A DNA stretch of 64,000 nt, taken from positions 248,001 through 312,000 of the forward strand of contig RSEE01000007.1 in the NCBI GenBank assembly GCA_003971905.1, read 5' to 3'. Positions within the stretch are counted from its first letter, which is position 1; each line of letters opens with the position of its first letter. The notes under the pieces were generated by a model. The model worked only from the letters and a program-made list of their open reading frames with translations, was not told the DNA's origin and did not search any database. The DNA comes from Moniliella sp. 'wahieum'. Its lineage: Eukaryota. Below, piece after piece: positions 23,868 through 64,000 of this stretch. The position numbers and the translations under genes are program-made.

Positions 23868-26800
23868 ATGGCGGACGCTGCGCAGACGCACAAGGAGCAC
23901 CATGCCACGCGTCTAAAGGAGCGGCGGAGGCCAAGGCGACTGCCAAGAAACAACGCGGCAACGATCCGCGCGCCTTCATCTCGGCCAACCCGCGCAGCGC
24001 CCAGAAGCAGATCCTCCGCAACGCGCAAAAGGAACAGGGACGTCTGCATGTGCCCCAGATCCATCGCGGGCCCTCGATCAATCCGACTCCCACTGGGCCT
24101 GGGTCAGCCCAAGCGCGCGCTGCTGCGGGCGATGTGGAGCCGCCGCCACCGCCCCCGCCCGTGATTGTGGCGGTGGTAGGGCCTGAGGGGGTGGGCAAGT
24201 CGACCTTGGTGCGGTCGCTGGTGCGGCGGTACACAAAGCACACTGTCGCGCACATCCAGGGCCCCGTCACTGTCGTCTCGGGCAAGCAGAGGAGGATTAC
24301 GATTATCGAGTGCCCCAATACGATTGATGCGATGATCGATGTGAGCAAGGTGGCGGACTTGGTACTGCTTATGATTGATGGCAGTTTTGGGTTTGAGATG
24401 GTACGTATGCGTCCTTCTGTGCTTCTAACCTTGCTCGATTGCGGCCGAACATGAGGGCTGACATATGGGGGTAGGAAACGATGGAGTTTTTGAATCTTCT
24501 TCAGTCCCACGGCTTCCCCAAGATCATTGGCGTCTTGACCCACCTCGACCTGATCCGCAAGCCGGCGGTGCTGCGGGCGACCAAGAAGCGACTAAAGCAG
24601 CGCTTCTGGACCGAGATCTACGATGGCGCCAAACTGTTTTACCTGTCGGGTGTCATCAACGGACGGTACCCGGACCACGAGATCCAGAACTTGTCCCGCT
24701 TTATTGGCGTGATGAAGTTCCGTCCTCTGGTGTGGCGGAACCAGCACTCGTACATGATTGCCGATCGACTGACTGACCTGACGCCACGCCAAGTGGTCAA
24801 GGAACCCCAAGTAGACCGGACCGTGACCGTATGGCTATTTGAGGGGTACCAACCTGCGTAACCCAGCGTCGGGCGGACTACGGGTTCACGTGCCCGGCGT
24901 GGGGGACCTGACGGTGCGAGCGGTGGAGAAATTGGCCGATCCGTGTCCCCTGCCCACGAGCGAGAGCGAAAAACGTCGTCGCCTGGCCGATAAGAACCGA
25001 CTGATCTATGCGCCCATGTCGGATGTGGGCGGGGTGATGTTTGACAAGGATGCGGTCTACATTAATGTGCCGGGTACCTTCTCCAAAAACCGGGCCGGGC
25101 TCGGAGGCGAGATGGAAGACGATTCGGTGCAGCCGACAAACGAGGGGGAAAGGATGGTGCTTGATCTCCAAGGTGCTGGCGAGACGTTGGATGAGCGGGT
25201 GAAAAAGTCAAAATTCCAACTGTTTGACACGCCGCGCCAGCGCCAGGCTGCCTTTGAAAATGACGTCCCCTCGGAAGAGGACCTGTCAGAGGAAGAGTCC
25301 GAAGGGAGGAGGCCGAGGAGGATGACGATGAAATGGACGAAGACGAGGACGAAGAAGAGGAGGAGTGGTCTCTTGCCCCTCAGACCGCGCGGAAGCACCG
25401 CACCGCCGCCCCCGAGGGCCGGGCCGACGACGAGGGGAAAATCTCCCAAGGCCAGAACGAGGTGGAGTATGCGGACAGTGATTCGGATCTGGGAAACCTC
25501 CTTGAGGATGAAGAGGACGAAAGCGAGGAGGAGGAGGACGATGAGGAAGAAGACCAAAACGAACCCGGGTTTGGGGGAGCTGCTCTGCGGTCTGAAGCAG
25601 CGCTGCGCGCCGAGGCCAACTTGCGAGAGAAGCGCAAGACGGCACCACAGGATCTTCAACGACTGGTCTATGAAACCGACCTCTCTCCTGAACGCATTGC
25701 GGCGGGGGACAATGGTCAAGCGTCGGACGGGGAGGCGGAAAGCGAGGAGGACGCCTTGTCAGGGTCTATGGAGGAAGAGGACTTTTTCCAGAAAAAGGCC
25801 ACCGCCAAGAAAGGGGAGGCGGAGGAGGCGGAGGAAGAGTTGTTCGACTCAACGCAAAGGCTGTACGATCCCTCGGAGCTGATCCAATGGGAGAGTGAGG
25901 CACAACTGGATTCCATTCGTGGACTCTTCATTACAGGTGGAGAGGAGGGTCAGGAGGCGGAAGCTGACGGTTCCGGTTCCGGTTCTGGCTCTGATTCTGG
26001 TGCTGATTCGGGCTCTGAGGCTGCGTCTGAGTCGGAGGCGGAGGAGGATGGGGATGCGAAAACGGCCGAACTGCGCAAGAAGAAAGAAGCACTGAAGCGC
26101 AAGTTTGATGCGCGGTACGACGACGATGAAGAAACCAAGGAGGCAGACTGGTACGACGAGCAGAAGGCCGAGCTCCTGCGGCAAGCGGAGGCCAACCGGC
26201 TTGAGCTTGCCGGTGAGGATGCAACGGTACGAGAAGCGGTGGAGGGCTTCATTGCCGGCTCGTACGTCCGCATGGAGTTGGCCAATGTACCCTGTGAGCT
26301 GGTGGAGTACTTTGACCCGCACCAACCATTGGTGGTCGGTGGTCTGCTTCCCAGTGAGGAGACCTACGGATGGATGCAGGTACGCATCAAAAAGCATCGT
26401 TGGTTCCATAAGATTCTCAAGACAAACGACCCTCTCATCTTCTCCATGGGCTGGCGCCGCTTCCAGAGTTTGCCCATCTACTCGCTCGACGATGGCACGA
26501 GGAATCGGATGCTGAAGTACACACCGGAGCATATGCATTGTCTCGCTACCATCTGGGCGCCTGCCGCCAGGCCCAACACGGGATTTGCCGCGTTCAATGC
26601 ACTGACATCCGAAACTCCTCGGTTCCGCATCAGCGCCACCGGTGTCGTGCTGGACAACGATGCTGGTGCAGCTGGGGTCGGCGCCCACCCAATTGTCAAG
26701 AAGCTCAAGTTGACCGGTTTCCCAGACCAGATCTTTAAGAAGACGGCGTTCATCAAGGGCATGTTCAATTCGCCCCTCGAGGTGGCCAAGTTTGAAGGCG

Positions 26801-27446
26801 CCCAGATCCGGACCGTGTCGGGGATCCGCGGGATTGTCAAGAAGGCTCTGGCCACGAACGATGGCAAGTTCCGAGCAACGTTTGAGGACAAGATCCTCAA
26901 GTCGGACATTGTCTTCCTCAAGGGGTGGATCAATGTGTATCCGCGCAAGTTGTATGCACCCGTGACGAGCTTGCTCTTACCGCCTCAAGAGCGGGGCGGG
27001 TGGAAGGGCATGCGGTTGACCGGTACCATCCGCCGCGAGGAAGGAATCAAGACGCCCACAATGTGGACTCGATCTACAAGCCCATCAAGAACCGGGCTGC
27101 GAAGCGGCAGTTCAATGCGCTGCGCGTGCCCCGCAAGCTGCGCGCGGCTCTGCCCGTGTCGGAGAAGAACAAGGTCATGCCGGGCCTGGGGCGGACAGTT
27201 ACCTGAAGAACCGGGCGGTGGTGATGGAGGCCAAGGACCGGGCGGCGGTCACGTTGTTGGAGCGGATGCAAGCCATCAACAAGGACCGCTTGGCCCGCCG
27301 GCGCGGCAAGAAGGAAGAGGCGCGCGCCAAGCGAGCCAAGCTCAACAAGGATGCCGAGGAACACAAGGAGGAGAAGATCAAGGAGAAGAAAGCAGGGCTC
27401 CATTCGTCTGGCGCGCGAGGACGCCAAGCGCCAAAAGACGGGCTGA
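23868..27446 (+). CDS. BMS1: 40S ribosome biogenesis GTPase Bms1
   Basis: PPPVIVAVVGPEGVGKSTL, ADLVLLMIDGSFGFEM|intron|ETMEFLN...HGFPK, RIKKHRWFHKILKTNDPLIFSMGWRRFQ, RMLKYTPEHMHC, FEGAQIRTVSGIRG. Confidence 0.97.
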
Positions 27447-27622
27447 GCGTATTCAGATGCATGCATTTGTTGGGCCACCAACTGCGACTGAGAGAGTATA
27501 CGGGGGCAGGTAGGGTGAGGTGGGAGTAGAGATGCTGTAGTGGCTATCAAATATCAGTTGCGCGACAATCGTATGCGCATATGCCCTCGTACAAGTACAA
27601 AAAGGATGGGGACAGGTAAGCC

Positions 27623-28753: not shown

Positions 28754-28976
28754 ATGCCCGCCTCCCTGCACCTCCCTGTCCCCTCCCATCTGCCGCCGCT
28801 CCCGCTCCCGCCGCCGCCATCCGCCGCTGCGCCGTCCGTCCCCGTCCCCGTCCCTGTCGTGAGCAAGTCTGCGCTTGCGCCTCCCCTTGCTGCGCCCTCT
28901 CCGCCTGAGCCAGTGTCTGCCCAGGCGCTCCCTTCGGCGCCTCCGTCTCAGCCCTACGCGCAGGGGCAGGCGCAGA

Positions 28977-29065
<89 letters not shown>

Positions 29066-30920
29066 GCACCGTCGCTGAATAGCGAAAGCCCCCCCTTGCA
29101 CGACCACACCACTGGTCAATTAGTCCCCAAGCCTTCGTCCGCGACCAACAAGCCCCAGAGCTCGCCCAGGCCACCCGAACGCAAGCGCAACAAGCCCGGC
29201 ATGCTCCAACGCTTGGTTCAGATTTTGACCTGTGCCTCCAACAGCAGCACTGCCACCATGGCCCACGACCACCCCCATCCCCTCCCTCCGCCCTCACCAA
29301 GCATTGTCACTCCTGCCCAGCCACGTCCGCCCGACGCTGAGGGCGAGATGGCTAGTGTCTCCACTAATGGTATGGATGAAACGATCGCCTCGACGGCGGG
29401 CAAGAGCACCAAGCGGGAGGTAGCTACTCCCTCGCCTGCAGCTGCATCTACCGTGTCCCCAGCGCCAGCATTAGGAGCCGCGTCTGGATCTGGATCTGCC
29501 TTTGCTCCTGGCTCTGCATCAGCTCCGGTCTCGGGAACTGCACCCCTGTCTGCGCCCACGGTGCCCGCCCCCAATCCTCCCAGCTCAGAGGCCACGTCGA
29601 GCCACCATGATCTCTCCTCCGACCACCCAGCTGCGCCCAGCACCGCCTCCAATACTACTCCGCGGCCTGCCCCTATTGACACGCTCGTTGCCCAGGCCAC
29701 CCGCACCCTGCCTTCCCGCCTCTCCTCCGGCCCAATCCGGACCAGCACGCCTGTTCCGCCGACCCCGACCACCGGCCAAGTCTCCACCCCCCCCACGCCG
29801 TCGGGGCTGCATTTGCCTCCCGGCACGCGTCCTCGTCCCTCGACCGACTCGCGACGGACCCAAGCCACGCGCAACAGCGGTCTCTACACCATGTTGGGCG
29901 GTAAAATTTTGCCGCGGGAAGAGACGGAGGATGTGTTGGCAGGGGCGGTGGTGCCGCCCGGCGCGACGTTTGGCCCGCCCACCAACCCGCCTACCCGACA
30001 CTCGAACAACACCCGCAAACTTTCCCGCGAATTTCCCAGTCCTCCGATCGAGTCCTGCTGGATCCTGCGGTCCTGCAGCCCGAGCAGCACGAGTTGCACC
30101 AGGAAGAGCTTGTGCCTGACATGCCCTCTGGGGCGGAAGGGTCAGGTCAGGAAGATGCAGTCGAGAATGGAGAGGAAGAAGTGGTGCAGGTCGGCGAACT
30201 GAGCCAGGACGAGTTGGATCAGCAGTGGATTCAATGGGAAATGGAGGAAGAGCAGCGCTTGATCTCCCAAGGGGGAGCTGGTATCCCTCATGACGAAGCA
30301 GGCAATCCCCATCCCCTCTTACCCCAGGCAGAGGGACACAAAAAATGCTTGGTGCTGGACTTGGACGAGACCCTGGTCCACTCTTCTTTCAAGACCATCC
30401 CCAATGCCGACTTTATTGTTCCTGTGGAGATTGAGGAGGTGGTACATGAGGTATATGTTGCCAAGCGCCCGGGTGTGGACGAGTTTCTGCGCCGGATGGG
30501 TGAGGTGTTTGAGATTGTTGTGTTTACTGCCTCACTGAGCAAGGTACGTCTCCCCCCCTCTCTCCCTCACCCTTCCCTGTGAGACAGATCAGGCTAAACT
30601 AACTGAAACTGCAGTACGCGGACCCGGTCCTGGATTTGCTCGATATACACAACGTGGTCTCCCACCGCCTGTTCCGAGAACACTGCTACCAACACCGTGG
30701 GACGTATGTCAAGGACCTTTCCCAGCTCGGCCGGCCCGTGGCGGAATCGATCCTGTTGGACAACTCGCCGGCTAGTTACATTTTCCATCCTAACAACGCC
30801 GTCCCCGTGTCTTCATGGTTTACTGATCCACATGACACGGAGTTGCTCGACATGTGCCCCTTCCTGATGGACCTGGTCCCCGTTTCGGACGTGCGGGCAG
30901 TATTGGACGCAGCACTCTAA
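28754..30920 (+). CDS. PSR1: NIF/FCP1-homology small CTD phosphatase (Psr1/Psr2-like)
   Basis: [40 protein letters not shown]|intron|[39 protein letters not shown]; long disordered N-terminus. Confidence 0.9.
28979..29062 (+). repeat. Perfect (CAGACG)14 coding microsatellite (Gln-Thr repeat)
   Basis: 84 bp of uninterrupted hexamer. Confidence 0.97.
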
Positions 30921-32841: not shown

Positions 32842-33207
32842 TGCATGATGCCGGGAAATGCCCGGCGGCCGCAGGGCCCAGGCCTTAGGCTGAGGCCTAA
32901 GGAAGAGATAGGGCAAACTGGCCCCGGCGGCTGTGCCCGAACCCTGGGGCTCCGGTGGGATCGATGAGGGTGGGTGACACCGGTGACAGCGAGCGAAGCA
33001 CATACGACGTGTACATGTGACAGGGCGCGTGTGCGCTGATTCTCCGGGTAGCGCAGTTTGCCGCCGGGGCGATGCCCACACCCACGTCATCCAGCCAGCC
33101 TGCGCCCTCGATTGGCCCGCACAGCGGAGCCCTCAGCTCGGCGCTTGGACTGCCATTGGTACTTGGTGTGTGCGTTGGACCCGAGTGGGGAAAAAACCGC
33201 GTCACTC

Positions 33208-35496
33208 TGTTGACTGTGATCCTCTGGCTCCCAGTCGGTAGACCAGGTTCGCCTCGGTTCCATCGGCTTCCACGCTGACGTCCCGTGCGTGCACTGTCCC
33301 TGGCCTGCACTCTCTCCTGTTGATCACTGTCCCTGTGCCTAGTCCAGCCTCCTATATAGATGCCTCTGTAACCAGACCCAACTCTGGCTCCAATCCATCA
33401 CCTTCTCCTCATCCTTCTGCCGTCCGGCTCCCTAGGCCAACAGAGCTACAATCTGATCCCCCCGGAAGGGGAGCGCTCTTCAAGCAAGCCCACCCCCAAC
33501 CTACAAGCCCAAGCTAAGCCGCAAGCCCACAAGAACACCCGTCCTCCCGCCCAACAACCACACGCCACAATCGGCACCTTACCAGCCACAATCGGCATAC
33601 TACCCGCCACAAATCGGCATACTACCGCACAATGGACACTCGTCCCCCACAGATGGGGCAATATTTTTAGGGAAAACACGACGGAACAAAACGTGTCGGG
33701 TATCGTCAACGAGACGAAATTCCTCAACGACAAACGGCGCAGGCGAATCGCAGAAAGAGGGGGTGCTGCTCATCAAGTGCCCCACCCACGGCTACACGCC
33801 CGGATTGCCAATTCATCGGGGCACCTGGGGAAAGGATGGGGGGGGGTGGTCACCCAACTTCTCACTCCTCTTTTTCAACAACAAAGAGAACCCAAACAGA
33901 TCAAGACGGTGACGCATAGCCGTTCATTTCCCATGCCCAATGGACCCCACTGGCACCAGGCTGCGGAACCAAAAACACTACCAAACATCCAATTTTGATG
34001 CCAAACGACCTTGGACCGCATTTACTCCAAGTTTCCAATTTCTTTCACTACACCTATAACTGGGCTTTTACTTTTGCCCACCAAATCGCTTCGGGGCGCA
34101 AACCCCTACTACTTTACTTCTGTGACTGTGATCCTGCCAGTCGGTAGACCAGGTTCGCCTCGGTTCCATCGGCTTCCACGCTGACGTCCTGCGTGTCATG
34201 TCCCTGTGCCTGCACTCTCTCCTGTGGACTAACTGTCCCTGTGCCTAGTCCAGCCTCCTATATAGATGCCTCTGTACCCAGACCCAACTCTGGCTCCAAT
34301 CTATCATTCTCTCATCCTTCTGCCCGTCCGGCTCCCTAGGCCAGCAGAGCTACAATCTGATCCCCGAAGGGGAGCGCTCTTCAAGCAAGCCCACCCCCAA
34401 GCCTACAAGCCCAAGCTAAGCCGCCAAGCCACAAGACACACCCGTCCTCCCGCCCAAAACACACCACCGCCACAATCGGCCTTTACCGCCACAATCGGCA
34501 TACTACCCGCACACATCGGCATACTACCGCCACAATCGGCACACTCGTCCCCCACAGATGGGGCAATTTTTTAGGGACAACACACGACGGAACAAAACGT
34601 GTCGGGTATCGTCAACGAGACGAAATTCCTCCAACGACAAAACGGCGCAGGCGAATCGCAGAAAGCGGGGGTGGCTGCTCATCAAGTGCCCCACCCACGG
34701 CTACACGCCCCGGATTGCCAATTCATCCGGGGCACCTGGGGAAAGGATGGGGGGGGGTGGTCACCCAACTTCTTCCACTCCTCTTTTTCAACAACAAAGA
34801 GAACCCAAACAGATCAAGACGGTTGACGCATAGCGCCCGTTCATTTCCCATGCCCAATGGACCCCACTGGCACCAGGCATGCGGAACCAAACAACTACCA
34901 AACGCATCCAATTTTGATGCCAAACGACCTTGGACCGCATTTACTCCAAGTTTCCAATTTTCTTTCACTACACCTATAACTGGTGCTTTTTACTTTTGCC
35001 CACCAAATCGCTTCGGGGCGCAACCCTACTACTTTACTTCTAAGACTTCTACAAGCATCTGGCGGTCGCACAATACACCAACCACAAGCGCTCGGCTCGT
35101 TCAGGTGTCATCCTGGACAGCGGGGGTGTAGGCCAGTCGTGTGGCCATGCACAACTCCAGGCCATTCGTCCCGGTTGCCACTCAAGTCCTCCCCTCTCTA
35201 CATCCACTGGCAGGAGCTCATCCCACAACCGATGTCTCCGGGTTCCCTGGCCAGCGGGGGTGTTGACTGTGATCCTCTGGCTCCCAGTCGGTAGACCAGG
35301 TTCGCCTCGGTTCCATCGGCTTCCACGCTGACGTCCCTGCGTGTCACTGTCCCTGTGCCCTGCACTCCTCCTGTTGACTCACTGTCCCTGTGCCTAGTCC
35401 AGCCTCCTATATAGATGCCTCTGTACCCAGACCCAACTCTGGCTCCAATCCACCCTTCTCCTCATCCTTCTGCCCGTCCGGCTCCCTAGGCCAACA
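33208..35496 (+). mobile_element. Non-autonomous LTR retroelement (TRIM-like) with three LTRs
   Basis: About 235-bp LTRs at 33208-33442, 34121-34346 and 35261-35496; outer copies start TGTTG and end CAACA; internal TATA (CCTATATAGA); PPT-like AGCGGGGG before LTR3; 5-bp TSD CACTC at 33203-33207 and 35497-35501; no gag/pol detected. Confidence 0.93.
33564..33632 (+). repeat. About 21-bp tandem repeat (gccacaatcggcatactacc) inside the LTR element; second copy of the array at about 34469-34541
   Basis: Three to four imperfect direct copies. Confidence 0.8.
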
Positions 35497-35787
35497 CACT
35501 CGCCCATCCCACAGCGCGCCTCGTGCGCGCACAAGTCGGGGCGGGGTTGAACTGAACGTTGAACGTTTTACGTTGATTCAGACGGAACTCAGTGCGGCGG
35601 AGAGGATCACGTGACCAGTCCCCGCTCTCCCTTCCGCGTGCCCAACGGAGGCATCCAGATTGCCAGCCTGTCTAAATTCAAACGTTAAACGACGCGCCAA
35701 CAAACACAACGCAAAGCAAGGACCAACCAAGTTAATTAAAACACCTTCACCCTCATCACCTCCGTCCCACCATCTCCGGCCTCCATC

Positions 35788-37949: not shown

Positions 37950-38048
37950 GTCGGGTTAGCTCAGATGGGAGAGCGTGAGATTGAAGCGATTCAATATTCA
38001 ATCCGAAAGGATTCCTCAAGGTCCCCGGTTCGATCCCGGGACACGACA
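37950..38048 (+). tRNA. tRNA-Phe(GAA) with about 26-nt intron
   Basis: GTCGGGT acceptor/ACACGAC(A), D-arm TAGCTCAGATGGGAGAGC, anticodon loop TTGAAG followed by intron (about 37987-38012), T-arm CCCGGTTCGATCCCGGG, T-run terminator. One acceptor-stem and one anticodon-stem mismatch. Confidence 0.88.
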
Positions 38049-38049
38049 C

Positions 38050-38207: not shown

Positions 38208-40339
<2,132 letters not shown>

Positions 40340-43300
40340 GCTAGAGTGCGACTTGGGAGCACTCGCGTTCCTATGGATCAGGTGCAAAGCAGCCTTCAGA
40401 CGGCCTGCTAGCGGAATGCTTCCGCTCGGCTAGGCGAGCGTCACCGATCCATTGCATTATAGCATGCTGCCTTTCCCTCCAGGAATCACAGCGGCTTCAC
40501 AAGCAACTGGGCCTAGGGTGATACTCACTCCTGTTTGACCAGATGCTCACACAACGGGAGGAGAGACTTTGCTGTTTCTGATGCAAACAAGAAAATGTTC
40601 TTTGTTCATACCTAGACTCGGTCCGTGGTATGTGCATGTTGCCCAGAAGCAGAGGCTGTTAAGAGAGCTTGGCCAATTGGACACATTGTCTGCAAAACCA
40701 TTGGCCCATCCCTCCAGCTGGAGACGGACCAGTTCTTTCGGTCACAGGCCGTGGCACTGTGAGGGTGCTGATGCCCTTCTTCATTTCCTCCCCGTCCCAC
40801 GTGCCTATGTCGTGCCAGGATGGAAGTCAGTAAGCCAAGAGTTTCCGCTGCCCGGGGTGGAGTGCACGGCAATTTACTGATGGCCGTCGTTGAGGTGCAG
40901 CTTTTGGTCATGTTCACCTAGGTAAGAAAGACGGTACGTGTCGTTTTGCATGTGTGAACTTCAGCAGTTTGGTCGTCTCGTCCTGGGCCGAGTTGGCCCC
41001 GATGTTGTACCACAAGTCACTGTCGGCGTCGTGTTTCCACAAGGCGGGAAGATAGGCGCGGTAATACCGAGCGGGTGAACAGGTTCCCCAAGGTACATGT
41101 GAATAGCCAGATCGCGTGGATGCTTATTGACCATCGGCTCAGTCACTTGTGCCGATCAGATCCCATCGTCCATTGTGTGGTTCTTCAATGAACCCGTCCT
41201 TTTGAGGGCCTGGACCATCGCCCTGAGCGACCAGGATTGGGATACTGTGACATCTTGGAGCGGATGGACGAGTCCGAGGACATGTATGAGGTGGAAAATG
41301 CGGTCTCGCCCGAAGGACCCAATGTATATCGTCTCCTGATACAAACTGCTCGATACACACAAGCTGGCACACCTTCTCGATTGCCTTTTAGTTTTGTTGA
41401 GCGAGTAAAGAGGCAATTTCCCTTCGGTCTTGCCCGCGACTTGTGCGAATGTGGTCTTCTCTCGCAACGAGATAGTTGGACTGGAGTATTCGTGCTGTAT
41501 ATAGCTGCTGTCACGACTATCTCAAGTGCACAACTAAAGAATCTATATATTAAACGCCCAGGCTGCAGGGGGGTGCCTAGAGCTAGCGGTTGGCGTGCGG
41601 GGGCAACACTGGCGCCATGCGGGTGGACCACCGGTGGTTGCGCCTATAACCGCACGCAGCTGCGACGATGCGCTTGCCTCACGACTACCACCACCAACAC
41701 CGCCACCGCCCCTCTCTCGCTGGCCACACACTGTGCTACCGGAGCTGGCGCCATGTGCCCGGCTCATTGCGCTACCATTATCTGCCCCCCCGCCGACGCG
41801 CTTGCTGTGCAAGCTCCTGACCTCGGTATGTCCACGCCCTCCGGGCGGATGCCTGTCGTACTGACTTGTCTGTGCGCAGCTGACGGAACCGAGTCGACCA
41901 CGCCTGGTGGCATGGTCTTGCTTGGTAGACGGTCGACGGTGACACGGTTGCCTCCGCTGGGGCTCGACGGTCAGTACCTGTGTTTTGTCCTTGTCCACCC
42001 ATTCACTGATAACGCCTTTGAGCAGGATGACTAGATGACTGGAGATGGCGCTCAAAAGTTCTGCAACAACGAACACGGACATGTGCAGGCTTGCGCACAG
42101 ATCGTCCACCGTATGTGTCGCCTGGCTCATCATTCTCTCTTTCTCGACCGCGATGACGCTTCACCCGCCCGTGCGACCTGGCCCTTGGATCTTGATTTTT
42201 GCCCTTCGGTCCCATTTCATCTCGGTGGCCCCATGATGTTTTCCCTTCGTGATTCAGCGACGAAGGCGAAGTCTCTGGCTGCCGCCGGCCTGAGGCTCTT
42301 ATAACAACCTGCCGTTGCCTTGGCCGCCTCTCTACTCCGTTCCGTGTCTGACCCTGGCAATGCATGCTTTGAAAAGTAATCCACTGCCTACTGATCTGGC
42401 AGTATGTGGCAGGCTATCCACCACCCTAGCCCCCGCCTGTCGGCAAGATTTTGCGACCCGTCCGGGGATCCCTGGTGGATAGATGGGGGATATCTGGTGG
42501 ATAGCTGGGGGCAACCTGGGGGCAAACTGTCGGGCAGATTGTCTCGACCTTGTGACGATCTTGCCGCCAGCGTCCCTTGTCGCGAGATTGTGGCAACACT
42601 GGTAATAGTCTGGCGAACACCACAGTTAATCTCGCGGCAAAAGGTCCGCGGCAACCTTGTAACCAGAAATTTCGATTAGCTATGTCCAATACGAGGAGAC
42701 CCCGGGCCTACGGCCCGGTCAGCTGGGGCGAAGCCCAGATGCCGTTCCCCCTTCGCCACCGGAGCCACCGTTCCACCGTCGCCAACTTCGTTCTGGCTGC
42801 AGGGGGCGTGTGGAACGTGGCACGGGGCAGCTGATGTATAAAAAGTGCACAGAGTGAAATGAGGAATAATATAATGTCCAATATTTCTTCGTTCCGAGCA
42901 TCTCGCTCATTCCCTGTTCTTCTGCTTCGCACCATATCCTCTGTTCCTGCTTCCTCCCCACGGACGATTGCTACATCCATGGCCTATAGTCTCGACTCGG
43001 GTCTCCCTCGCCTCGGCCGTTCTTGTCTCCTTTTCATGTCGGAAATCCGTGTCGTCCTCCCTCGCTCTATACAAATATAGTAGTTCTCCGGACAGACCAC
43101 CTCCGGGAACTGGAAGCTTCTTCTTCTGTGAAGGCTGGCTATGACTAGTATGACTGGCTCGGTTCGTTCTACGGTACCCTGTCTCCCGGTCAGGAAAGCA
43201 AGAAAAGAAGGCCCACAGACGCGCTCCCGGGAGGTAACAGGGGGGGGGGGGGGGGCTAGGCTAAGTAGGAGGGGGGCAGGCTCGCTCATGCTCACACTGG

Positions 43301-43750
43301 CACCAAGCTGCCGCAGCCCCACAGACACAGACGCCAGGCAGAAGATGCAGCCCCACTGGCTGCGGCCGGCTGGCGCAGTGCAGGCGACAGCTGATATATG
43401 ATGCCCTACCCACCTCCCGCATCCTACCGCTTTCCCTCGCAGCACCACGCAGCACTGCTGCCGCCGCCCAGGTGGCGCACAGGCGAGCTGCCCCGTGCTG
43501 CTCCCTATCGCCACACTGGCACCGTGCGGGTGTGTCTCAGCAGCAGCTCTCAGGCGACGGGAACCCGGCGGCCGCCGTCGCCTGGGTGGGCGGCTGTGGT
43601 GCGCCGGTGGTGCAGAGGTCGCTGCCCACACTGCAGACCAAAAACCCAACAGGAGCAGTCGTGCTTATATATCCCCTCTCCTGACCTCCTCGATCCCTCT
43701 GCCTCCACCATCCCTCCGCCACCGCCATCCGCCACCACCGTCTTCCCAAC

Positions 43751-44549
43751 ATGTCCTCCACCGATATTATCCGTCGCAAGCTGGTCATCGTGGGCGATGG
43801 TGCTGCGGTAAGACGTGTTGCTCATCGTCTTTAGCAAAGGCACCTTCCCCGAGGTCTACGTCCCGACCGTATTTGAGGTACGCTCCTGTCTGCCTCTGCG
43901 CCCACTCGCCTATATGCAGAGAAGAGAGGACTGAATGCAGAGAAGAGAGGACTGACGCACGCTCTGGCTGTCTTTGTAGAACCATGGCACGTCGATCGCT
44001 TCTTGCTGAATGCAGTGTGTCCTTGCGCGCGAGCTAACGTCCTCCCTTCCCCCTCTGCCCCCGCTGTCCCGCCTTGTTGTGGCTGCAGTGGCTGAAGTGC
44101 AGGTCGATGGCAAGCACGTCGAGCTTGCGCTCTGGGACACGGCTGGGCAGGAAGACTACGACCGTCTCCGCCCGCTCTCCTACCCCGACTCGCACGTGAT
44201 TCTCATCTGCTTTGCCGTTGACAGTCCCGACTCGCTGGACAATGTGCAAGAAAAGTGGATCTCGGAGGTGTTGCACTTTGCCGTCAACTTGCCGATCCTG
44301 CTGGTAGGGTGCAAGATGGACCTGCGGCACGACCCGCGGATTGTGGAGGAACTGGCGCCGCACCAACCAACGCCCAGTCACGTTCCAACAGGGAAGCAAC
44401 ATGGCACACAATTGGGGCTCGCGCTACATTGAATGCTCGGCCAAGTTGGGGACAGGCGTGCGCGAGGTGTTTGAGACGGCCACCCGCGCCGCCCTGTCCG
44501 TTAACATGGTAAGCGTGGTACGGGCGGTGGTCGTTGCCCCTTGCTCTAG
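43751..44549 (+). CDS. RHO1: Rho1-family small GTPase, paralog 2 (several indels: assembly error or pseudogene)
   Basis: [17 protein letters not shown]...; same exon structure with microexon AACCATG at 43980-43986; same RCPLL tail as paralog 1 after indel correction; 21-bp tandem duplication in intron 1. Confidence 0.85.
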
Positions 44550-45276
44550 CCTTGTACCTTTTTCTTCCCCTCAATATCCTCATCATGTTAGCCTCCTTGC
44601 GGGCTTGCTTATGTTTCTGTTTTTCATCCATACCTCCCTGCCGGCATCGCCCCCATTATAGCAACGCTTCCCTGTGCATTTGAATTGGTTTATATCCCAC
44701 GCGACTCGCACTGCCTGTCGCGGTAGTTCGTAGCGCTAGCGCACGCTGCACGACGAAGTGGACGTTCTCATCCGGCAATGAGAGGTGTGATTGTGGCCTG
44801 CTCTTTTGGGGGCGTGGGTACGGGTGGTGTAACGGTCATCTCGTTCCTTGTCCTATTGTATCTCAAGAGTGGGGGAATGTACACACCCTAACGGCGAAAA
44901 GGTGAAAAAAGGTATACAGAGCGGATAGATACAGCCCATGCACAGCTTCCACGCAGAAAGGCGCAGGGGAGCAGCGCCACTGGGACCGATAACCATATAG
45001 GGTAGACAGACAACACAGAGAGGAAGGAGATCCAGCCTGGACCCAAGTGGTGAGGACTTGGAAGGGGACGTCGTGGGGTGGACATAGGAGAGGCGTGGGG
45101 ACCAGGGTATCGACGTGGCGTAGGCCCTGCAAAGAGCCACCTTCTCCTAAAACGCACCAGCGTTCGACGCTCAGCGCTGGACGAGGGAGGCGTGGGAACA
45201 AAACAAAAGAGAACCAACAAAAGGGAATGCAACACAACACAAATGGTGGGGGTTGCGTGGACCCAAGGTCCCAGGA

Positions 45277-62639: not shown

Positions 62640-62897
62640 TGGCGGGCAAGATTGCGACTAGAAAATGGCGGACAAGGTTCGCTATACTAGAACGGCGGGC
62701 AAGGTTGCGACGAGCTTTATAGGGCACAATCTGGCAACAACCTCGCTGGGCAACCTTGGGACAACCTGGTCCAGCAGGTTGTGGCTAGCAGTCCTGGCGA
62801 GGCGCGACAAGATTGTGCCCCTCAAATCTATCGGCGAGCTTATGGCGAGGCCCGCAAGGCCCGATACGTTGTGGGCCAGAAATTTCGATTAACTATG
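62640..62897 (-). mobile_element. Terminus and subterminal repeats of the same CATAG TIR family
   Basis: CCAGAAATTTCGATTAACTATG (62876-62897) is 21/22 identical to 42663-42684; adjacent about 90 bp matches 40248-40339; about 26-bp repeats ggcgggcaag(g/a)ttgcgac. Confidence 0.7.
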
Positions 62898-63371
62898 CTC
62901 TCTGTGTTGTCTGTCTACCCTATATGGTTATCGGTCCCAGTGGCGCTGCTCCCCTGCGCCTTTCTGCGTGGAAGCTGTGCTTGGGCTGTATCTATCCGCT
63001 CTGTATAATACCTTTTTTCACCTTTTCGCCGTTAGGATGTGTACATTCCCCCCACTCTGAGATACAATAGGACAAGGAACGAGATGACCGTTACACCGTA
63101 CCCACGCCCCCAAAAGAGCAGGCCACCATCACACCTCTCATTGCCGGAGAGCGCTCACTTGTCGTGCAGCGTGCGCTATTAGTGCTACGAGCTACCGTGA
63201 CAGGCGGATTCGAGTCGCGTAGTGATATAAACCAATTCAAATGCACAGGGAAGCGTTGCTATAATGGGGGCGATGCCGGCAGGGAGGTATGGATGAAAAA
63301 CAGAAACATAAGCAAGCCCGCAAGGAGGCTAACGGAGATGAGGATGTTGAGGGGAAGAAAAAGGTACAAGG

Positions 63372-64000
63372 CTAGAGGATGGAGCAAATACCAGGGCCCG
63401 GAATACGGCAAATTATCATGCCTGATTTAACGGACAGAGCGGCGCGGGTGGCCGTTTCAAACACCTCGCGCACGCCCGTCCCCAACTTGGCCGAGCATTC
63501 AATGTAGGCGCGAGCCTTAATTGTGTGTGCCATGTTGCTGCCCTCTTCGAACGTGACTGGGCGTTGGTTGGTGCGTCGCAGTTCCTCCACAATCCGCGGG
63601 TCGTCCCGCAGGTCCTTCTTGCACCCTACCAGCAGGATCGGCAAGTTGACGGAAAAGTGCAGCACCTCCGAGATCCACTTTTCTTGCACATTTCCCAGCG
63701 AGTCGGGACTGTCGATGGCAAAGCAGATGAGAATCACGTGCGAGTCAGGGTAGGAGAGCGGGCGGACGGTCGTAGTCTTCCTGCCCAGCCGTGTCCCAGA
63801 GCGCAAGCTCGACGTGCTTGCCATCGACCTGCACTTCAGCCACTGCAGCCACAACAAGGCGAGACAGCGGGGGCAGAGGGGAGGGGAGGACGTTAGCTCG
63901 CGCGCAAGGATACACCGCATTCAGCAAGAAGCGATCGACTTGCCATAGTTCTACAAAGTCAGCCAGAGCGTGCGTCAGTCCTCTCTTCCCTGCATGCAGG
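63372..64000 (-). CDS. RHO1: Rho1-family small GTPase, paralog 3 (exon 1 beyond window edge)
   Basis: Microexon AACTATG (NYV) at 63944-63950, GC-AG intron, [24 protein letters not shown], tail [20 protein letters not shown]. Confidence 0.9.

Follow-up and report, generated by a model that had tools for sequence, protein, structure and literature searches.

[quoted passage not shown]

The window, that is, the whole 64-kb stretch of DNA that was analysed, contains an old, non-coding, non-autonomous LTR retrotransposon that was inserted once and forms a tandem array. It is an LTR element whose primer-binding site is not of the TGG type and stands in the register of the copia elements primed by half-tRNAs, and the structural reading of the first-pass annotation is right in this respect. 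The form of the site suggests that the minus-strand primer was probably one half of tRNA-Tyr(GUA) in its spliced form, cleaved within the anticodon stem. Priming of this type is already described for elements of rust fungi, so that the element is a new example and involves no new mechanism.

Structure and age of the element

BLAST against the window, a repeat finder and alignments delineate one insertion at 33208-35496 with the layout LTR-internal-LTR-internal-LTR, three LTRs and two internal parts within a single target-site duplication (TSD). The features are as follows.

33203-33207, plus strand: left TSD, CACTC, identical to the five bases past LTR3
33208-33442, plus strand: LTR1, 235 nt, TGTTGA...CCAACA, from the alignment
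33353-33359, plus strand: TATA-like motif TATATAG within LTR1, present in all three LTR copies
33443-33456, plus strand: primer-binding site, copy 1, GAGCTACAATCTGA, divided as GA-GC-TAC-AA-TCTGA; assigned by its form, the complement of tRNA positions 40-27 with a GUA anticodon
33443-34120, plus strand: internal part of unit 1, non-coding, from the between-unit alignment and the lack of Pfam families in its ORFs
33563-33633, plus strand: 21-nt tandem repeat CGCCACAATCGGCATACTACC in the leader of unit 1, 3.4 copies
34121-34346, plus strand: LTR2, the middle LTR, with an altered 5' end (TGTTGA short of one T, plus a 6-nt gap)
34347-34360, plus strand: primer-binding site, copy 2, the identical 14-mer
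34347-35260, plus strand: internal part of unit 2, 914 nt, non-coding; its 3' tail, 35044-35260, is absent from unit 1
34466-34545: the same 21-nt repeat in unit 2, 4.0 copies
about 35117-35132: near-copy of the purine tract, ACAGCGGGGGTGTAGG
35253-35260, plus strand: polypurine-like tract AGCGGGGG, abutting LTR3, putative plus-strand primer
35261-35496, plus strand: LTR3, the 3' LTR, 236 nt, from the alignment
35497-35501, plus strand: right TSD, CACTC, read from the sequence

The ends are of the Ty1/copia style, with a 5-bp TSD, CACTC, and the termini TGTTG...CAACA; PMC4139406 names the latter as the terminus that Ty1-like elements conserve. The alignment of the three LTRs features an invariant block, CCTCCTATATAGATGCC, that contains the TATA-like motif in the plus orientation. 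This implies Pol II-type transcription of the plus strand from the LTR, the motif being the putative promoter.

The two units are not equally complete. According to the alignment, the internal part of unit 1 lacks the last ~216 nt of unit 2, the purine tract included, and a single unit 2 is about 1,385 bp long (an LTR of 235, an internal part of 914 and an LTR of 236). Past LTR3 there is flanking DNA, with no primer-site motif.

None of the 13 stop-to-stop ORFs of the element matches a Pfam family at threshold, and the same scan finds no Pseudoviridae-type Gag-Pol (RT/IN) encoded in them. Lacking Gag-Pol, the element does not itself belong to the half-tRNA-primed copia elements and can at most depend on them. 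The combination of LTRs, a primer-binding site, a polypurine tract, a TSD and no coding capacity places it among the non-autonomous LTR retrotransposons (TRIM/LARD class). It carries no recognisable tRNA-like sequence: in 33100-35600 an Rfam search taken to E = 10 yields no tRNA, and its other matches there are at chance level; ARAGORN, with or without the intron mode, finds no tRNA within the element. The strings TGGCT...CGG and GGTTCG are only ~8 nt apart by eye, which is not a tRNA layout.

LTR1 and LTR3 are 95.0% identical over 240 aligned columns, LTR2 and LTR3 are 92.3% identical over 234 columns, and the two units are 92.2% alike over 952 columns. Over 705 aligned columns the units differ by 31 substitutions, of which 6 are transitions and 25 are transversions, and by 21 indels, each of 1-3 nt. 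The differences are not rich in transitions, unlike those left by repeat-induced point mutation. LTRs that are 92-95% alike, together with the loss of the purine tract from unit 1, indicate an old element, and a present-day function is not implied. Tandem or complex LTR arrays (LTR-I-LTR-I-LTR) are an arrangement of small non-autonomous elements, and the array is like these in having three LTRs, two internal parts and one TSD. It could have arisen by unequal exchange between LTRs or by template switching.

The primer-binding site

The first-pass annotation placed a motif other than a TGG-type site immediately after LTR1 and LTR2, and this holds to the base: GAGCTACAATCTGA starts, as the alignment demonstrates, at the first base past the terminal CA of either LTR. 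No TGG, as expected for pairing with a tRNA 3' end, is found at the site. When GAGCTACAATCTGA is searched with up to two mismatches on both strands of the window, the two sites are the only matches, the chance expectation being 0.30, and two or more matches were obtained in 3 of 100 shuffles. At that, the two copies are not independent, as they belong to tandem units of one insertion, and the 19 to 21 identical bases shared by units that are ~92% alike are no more than this identity predicts.

The reverse complement, TCAGA-TT-GTA-GC-TC, had been read as tRNA positions 27-40 with a GUA anticodon and with the pairs A31-U39 and G30-C40. We confirm this reading: it has U33, a purine at position 37 and both Watson-Crick pairs, and it is the only register that fits. 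The register test was made by reverse-complementing the 20 bases past the LTR and considering each loop of seven bases whose second base is U, which gave five loop registers. Tyr(GUA) is the sole one with U33, R37 and paired 30-40 and 31-39; the Thr(UGU) register breaks at 29-41, the CAG register fails at 30-40, and the AGC and CUG registers have a pyrimidine at position 37. If the final CA of the LTR is counted, the pairing in the Tyr register would gain two bases, making a 4-bp CAGA/TCTG stem.

As a measure of how often such an arm occurs, a generic template for positions 27-40 (U33, R37 and two Watson-Crick pairs) was applied to the window, and 772 of its 127,974 14-mers (0.60%) fitted. Ten of the 772 have GTA at positions 34-36. 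Only two 14-mers of the window combine GTA with GA at 30-31 and TC at 39-40, and these are the two sites themselves. Since the register was read after the sequence had been seen, the value to go by is that of one register alone, 0.6%.

A further copy of the element is present in a metagenome run, X1, a low-share DNA run in which most of the element has no cover. X1 was the one DNA run listed in the search of sequencing runs, and no RNA run was listed. A 151-nt contig from this run spans 33324-33463 with three differences and one insertion, all of them within the LTR, after ten unlike letters at its start. Because of these LTR differences the contig matches none of the three LTRs described here, and hence it represents another copy. 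It has the same 21 bases past the LTR, so that the site is kept, although with an identity of ~96% an unaltered stretch of this length is nothing out of the ordinary.

Search for the matching tRNA

No tRNA-Tyr gene was found in the 64-kb window by ARAGORN, with and without the intron mode, or by the Rfam scan at the gathering threshold. The Rfam scan yields no tRNA genes in the window at all, and neither does ARAGORN without the intron mode, which misses intron-bearing genes. The only tRNA gene in the window, identified by ARAGORN in the intron mode, is tRNA-Phe(GAA) at 37950-38049. It has a 26-nt intron at 37/38 and a T-run behind it, and scores 43.6 bits as an Rfam tRNA. Its arm is TGAGA-TT-GAA-G/T-CCTCA, and thus U32 with a pyrimidine at position 38 does occur in this genome. 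Two of its stem pairs, G5.A68 and A31.C39, are mismatched, so that the gene could be a copy in decay. It was rejected as a candidate primer because no more than 10 of 14 positions agree with the site.

The search was extended to sequence collections. An intron-split Tyr gene with the required arm was sought in metagenome contigs; three loci were retrieved, all of them coding-looking and none a tRNA, a result of little weight, because stem and T-loop were presupposed in the search pattern and the collection contains few fungi. A 19-mer had no matches in viral contigs. Its matches in prokaryote genomes, located in at least 119 contigs, are coincidental: no tRNA was found, without the intron mode, at any of the 20 loci tested, and at least 24 of 25 contexts among the matches listed share the coding-like frame FQSYNLI, which we take to be an ABC-ATPase motif. 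As a printed sequence in the full text of the literature, the arm or the site retrieved only unrelated primers.

Comparison with known elements

The first-pass annotation knew of no described case of priming by tRNA-Tyr. Here it was wrong, as Kojima 2024 (PMC10886601) reports that fungal Helenus families and Copia-50_PHord are primed from the anticodon loop of a spliced tRNA-Tyr-GTA. According to the same paper, these tRNA genes contain introns while the primer sites fit the spliced form, and the use of tRNA-Tyr-GTA arose several times. Hence both the mechanism and the tRNA-Tyr primer had already been described, by inference from sequence. Our literature search found no further printed cases of priming by a tRNA-Tyr half.

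In Data S1 of PMC10886601 the internal parts of ten Puccinia families open with GATTTACAGTC, whose register is that of the site considered here: Helenus-9_PSt, -6_PTrit, -9_PTrit, -5_PHord, -3_PHor, -9_PHor, -7_PCor, -8_PCor, -11_PCor and -8_PNov. Each of the ten occurrences of gatttacagtc in Data S1 stands at the very start of the internal part of a Puccinia Helenus family. The iMet-type sequence ggttatgagccc occurs there 48 times, and ten of ten among the matches listed start an internal part. The exact motif of our element is absent from Data S1, with zero occurrences of both gctacaatc and ctacaatctga.

Aligned by register, the rust site GA-TT-TAC-AG-TCT and the site here, GA-GC-TAC-AA-TCT, agree in 9 of 14 bases. 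The loop bases are GC and AA here versus TT and AG in the Puccinia sites. In terms of the tRNA, the implied loop is UU-GUA-GC here, whereas CU-GUA-AA is obtained for the rust tRNA-Tyr when its loop is derived from the ten primer sites in Data S1; the differences are at positions 32, 37 and 38.

Copia-50_PHord and the tRNA-Tyr-GTA Helenus TRIMs of Puccinia described in PMC10886601 resemble our element in the placement of the site at the first base past the LTR, in its having the form of the complement of a spliced tRNA-Tyr arm and in the common form GA-NN-TAC-NN-TCT. They also share a 5-bp TSD, the lack of autonomy and presumed mobilisation by Copia. Unlike the Puccinia Helenus elements as characterised there, however, the LTR of our element has no tRNA-like Pol III module (box A, box B), and the TATA motif is found in its place. 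As this module is lacking, the element is not a Helenus (TRIMp3). A further difference is the length of the unit, as the ~1,385 bp are more than the limit of 1,000 bp that PMC10886601 quotes for TRIMs.

The hosts differ as well: the Puccinia Helenus elements reside in rusts, whereas the genome considered here is Ustilaginomycotina-like, that is, smut-related. A BMS1-type protein is encoded in the window at 25264-27513. Its best named match is from Tilletiaria anomala (60% identity), followed by other smut relatives, and its top match overall is an unnamed protein with 74% identity.

The first-pass annotation had also assigned the site to the register of the Hemivirus-type half-tRNA sites. This assignment agrees with PMC1181622, which names the 3'-OH of tRNA nucleotide 40 as the point of priming in copia, Ty5, 1731 and Osser: our site starts at the complement of this nucleotide. 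The same register is that of the iMet-type site GG-TT-ATG-AG-CCC. The Hemivirus elements use the initiator tRNA-Met and their own Gag-Pol, whereas here tRNA-Tyr is implied and nothing is encoded.

Other tRNAs are used in a similar way. PMC6317226 describes sites for half tRNA-Met and for half tRNA-Ile in copia lineages of plants, Bianca having the half tRNA-Ile site, and in PMC4139406 the primer site of the Candida albicans gamma/Tca2-type elements matches a stretch inside tRNA-Arg(UCU). Our element is like the Candida Tca2-type elements and the plant Bianca in that its site points to an internal region of a non-initiator tRNA, and unlike them in the tRNA species and in that they are autonomous.

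Alternative explanations

The reading we favour, priming by half of a spliced tRNA-Tyr(GUA), has to be weighed against several others. The site could be a real primer-binding site that pairs with another host RNA, such as a different tRNA region, a diverged tRNA-like gene or a small RNA. The implied loop with U32 and C38 departs from the rust tRNA-Tyr loop, and the metagenome contigs gave no tRNA gene with this arm, both of which are consistent with such an RNA. However, no other register yields a tRNA-like arm, the tRNA-Phe of the window agrees at 10 of 14 positions only, a TGG that could pair with a tRNA 3' end is missing, and the published half-tRNA sites have precisely this position-40 register. 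We therefore consider another host RNA unlikely, while still giving it some weight. A special form of this idea, in which the primer is a separate RNA with a Tyr-like arm (U32, C38) dedicated to the retroelements of this fungus, the product, say, of a tRNA-like gene that has diverged or is carried by a retroelement, seems improbable. In its milder version the primer would be the host tRNA-Tyr itself with an unusual loop, which the site would mirror. The tRNA-Phe gene of the window has a U32/U38 loop, with which the milder version agrees.

The resemblance to an anticodon arm might also be fortuitous, the element being a decayed relic whose bases past the LTR do not, or never did, reflect a tRNA. 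The reading was indeed made after the fact, the element is old and ridden with indels, and the second copy of the site adds no independent observation; yet the generic template is fitted by a mere 0.6% of 14-mers, the reports of this mechanism in fungi name few tRNA types, of which the one with the Tyr anticodon is an example, and the copy in run X1 retains the site. On balance, a fortuitous match is rather doubtful.

Self-priming of the Tf1 type, raised in the first-pass annotation, would have the 5' end of the element's own transcript fold back on the site. The lack of a TGG-type site would suit it, as would a small CAGA/UCUG hairpin that spans the LTR end and the site in the RNA fold. The search for complementarity speaks against it: without gaps, the 14-mer is complementary to LTR1 or LTR3 at no more than 8 of 14 positions, the longest run being 4, and 445 of 500 LTR shuffles reach 8; the best match to internal part 2 is again 8 of 14, with a run of 5, and the whole fold of 33425-33490 is no better than that of shuffles (z = 0.15). 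Self-priming is thus largely refuted, and we regard it as very improbable. Finally, the element might be read on the minus strand, with the true primer site beside LTR3 and the motif at the 3' end. Nothing beyond the symmetry of the LTRs speaks for this, while the TATA motif and the purine tract before LTR3 fit the plus orientation, and the reverse complement of 35243-35260 is neither a TGG site nor an arm-like one. This orientation is scarcely credible.

Proposed scheme of priming

With tRNA-Tyr(GUA) as the probable primer, the life cycle of the element may be outlined from the form of the site and by analogy with the known half-tRNA-primed elements. Transcription would begin downstream of the LTR1 TATA motif. 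A spliced tRNA-Tyr would be cut after approximately nucleotide 40, and its 5' part would anneal to 33443-33456; the arm called for at positions 27-40 of this tRNA is TCAGATTGTAGCTC. The cut would lie in the 3' strand of the anticodon stem, and the 3'-OH of approximately nucleotide 40 would prime reverse transcription. A point against such pairing is that a G at tRNA position 37 is usually methylated to m1G, which is unable to pair with C.

Minus-strand synthesis would then be followed by strand transfer, and the plus strand would be primed at the purine tract abutting LTR3. Integration would generate the 5-bp duplication that is seen as the TSD. The proteins would be supplied in trans by copia-type elements of the same genome, such a helper being postulated because the element itself has no genes.

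Implications

Programs that find primer-binding sites and are limited to the TGG type will miss families of this kind, which is of value for annotation. If the match to the host tRNA-Tyr is true, priming by the arm of a spliced tRNA-Tyr extends from the rusts to a smut-related (Ustilaginomycotina-like) lineage, and it also reaches a TATA-bearing dependant element that is not a Helenus. In that case the element would support the notion that copia lineages of fungi are free to change from one intron-bearing tRNA to another for their half-molecule primers.

Internal repeats and divergence of the two units

The leader of each of the two tandem units of the retroelement contains a short tandem repeat, CGCCACAATCGGCATACTACC, with the period of 20–21 nt:

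33563–33633, 3.4 copies, leader of unit 1
34466–34545, 4.0 copies, leader of unit 2

At the 3' tail of unit 2, the purine tract together with the first bases following it is present twice, at 35117–35132 and 35250–35266, the two versions being ACAGCGGGGGTGTAGG and CCAGCGGGGGTGTTGA, respectively. A second LTR junction may once have stood here and left this doubling behind.

When the units are compared (33443–35047), the differences between them are mostly indels of 1–3 nt (21 events) and transversions (25 out of 31 substitutions). Such a pattern is unusual for decay by point mutations, and an assembly error could be its source.

Genes and repeats around the element

Features in the vicinity of the retroelement

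37950–38049, + strand, tRNA-Phe(GAA) gene interrupted by an intron of 26 nt at position 37/38, with a T-run terminator
38436–40258, 43097–45022 and 62887–64000 (inverted), three copies of a segment of about 1.8 kb, 89–100% alike

The tRNA-Phe gene lies 2.45 kb downstream of the retroelement end. Its anticodon loop is UU-GAA-GU, and the stems contain two mismatches, A31·C39 and G5·A68; the gene was found neither by the default tRNA tool nor by the Rfam gathering scan. The repeated segment carries an exon of a Ras-family GTPase (ORF 39123–39776, Pfam Ras, E-value 5.8e-35), and its inverted copy is situated at the end of the window. The copies suggest that a gene has recently been duplicated locally. 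At 28935–29090, within a stretch of 69% G+C, lies a long microsatellite of the GCAGAC type, with copies in a 12-nt register.

Matches in other sequence sets

In the metagenome run X1, a contig of 143 nt covering 35261–35367 consists of LTR bases 1–107, six other letters, and a second LTR start. Either another sample contains an LTR copy that has been rearranged, or the contig is an artefact of the assembly graph.

Across the boundary between the LTR end and the tRNA-Tyr-type primer site, a run of 19 bases matches, without a single difference, a coding stretch widely conserved in bacterial genes (prokaryote contigs L004–L122, at least 119 matches), which translates, by eye, as FQSYNLI; among the matches listed, the genes belong mostly to Oscillospiraceae and their relatives. 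This match is a coincidence, and one able to mislead scans with short patterns.
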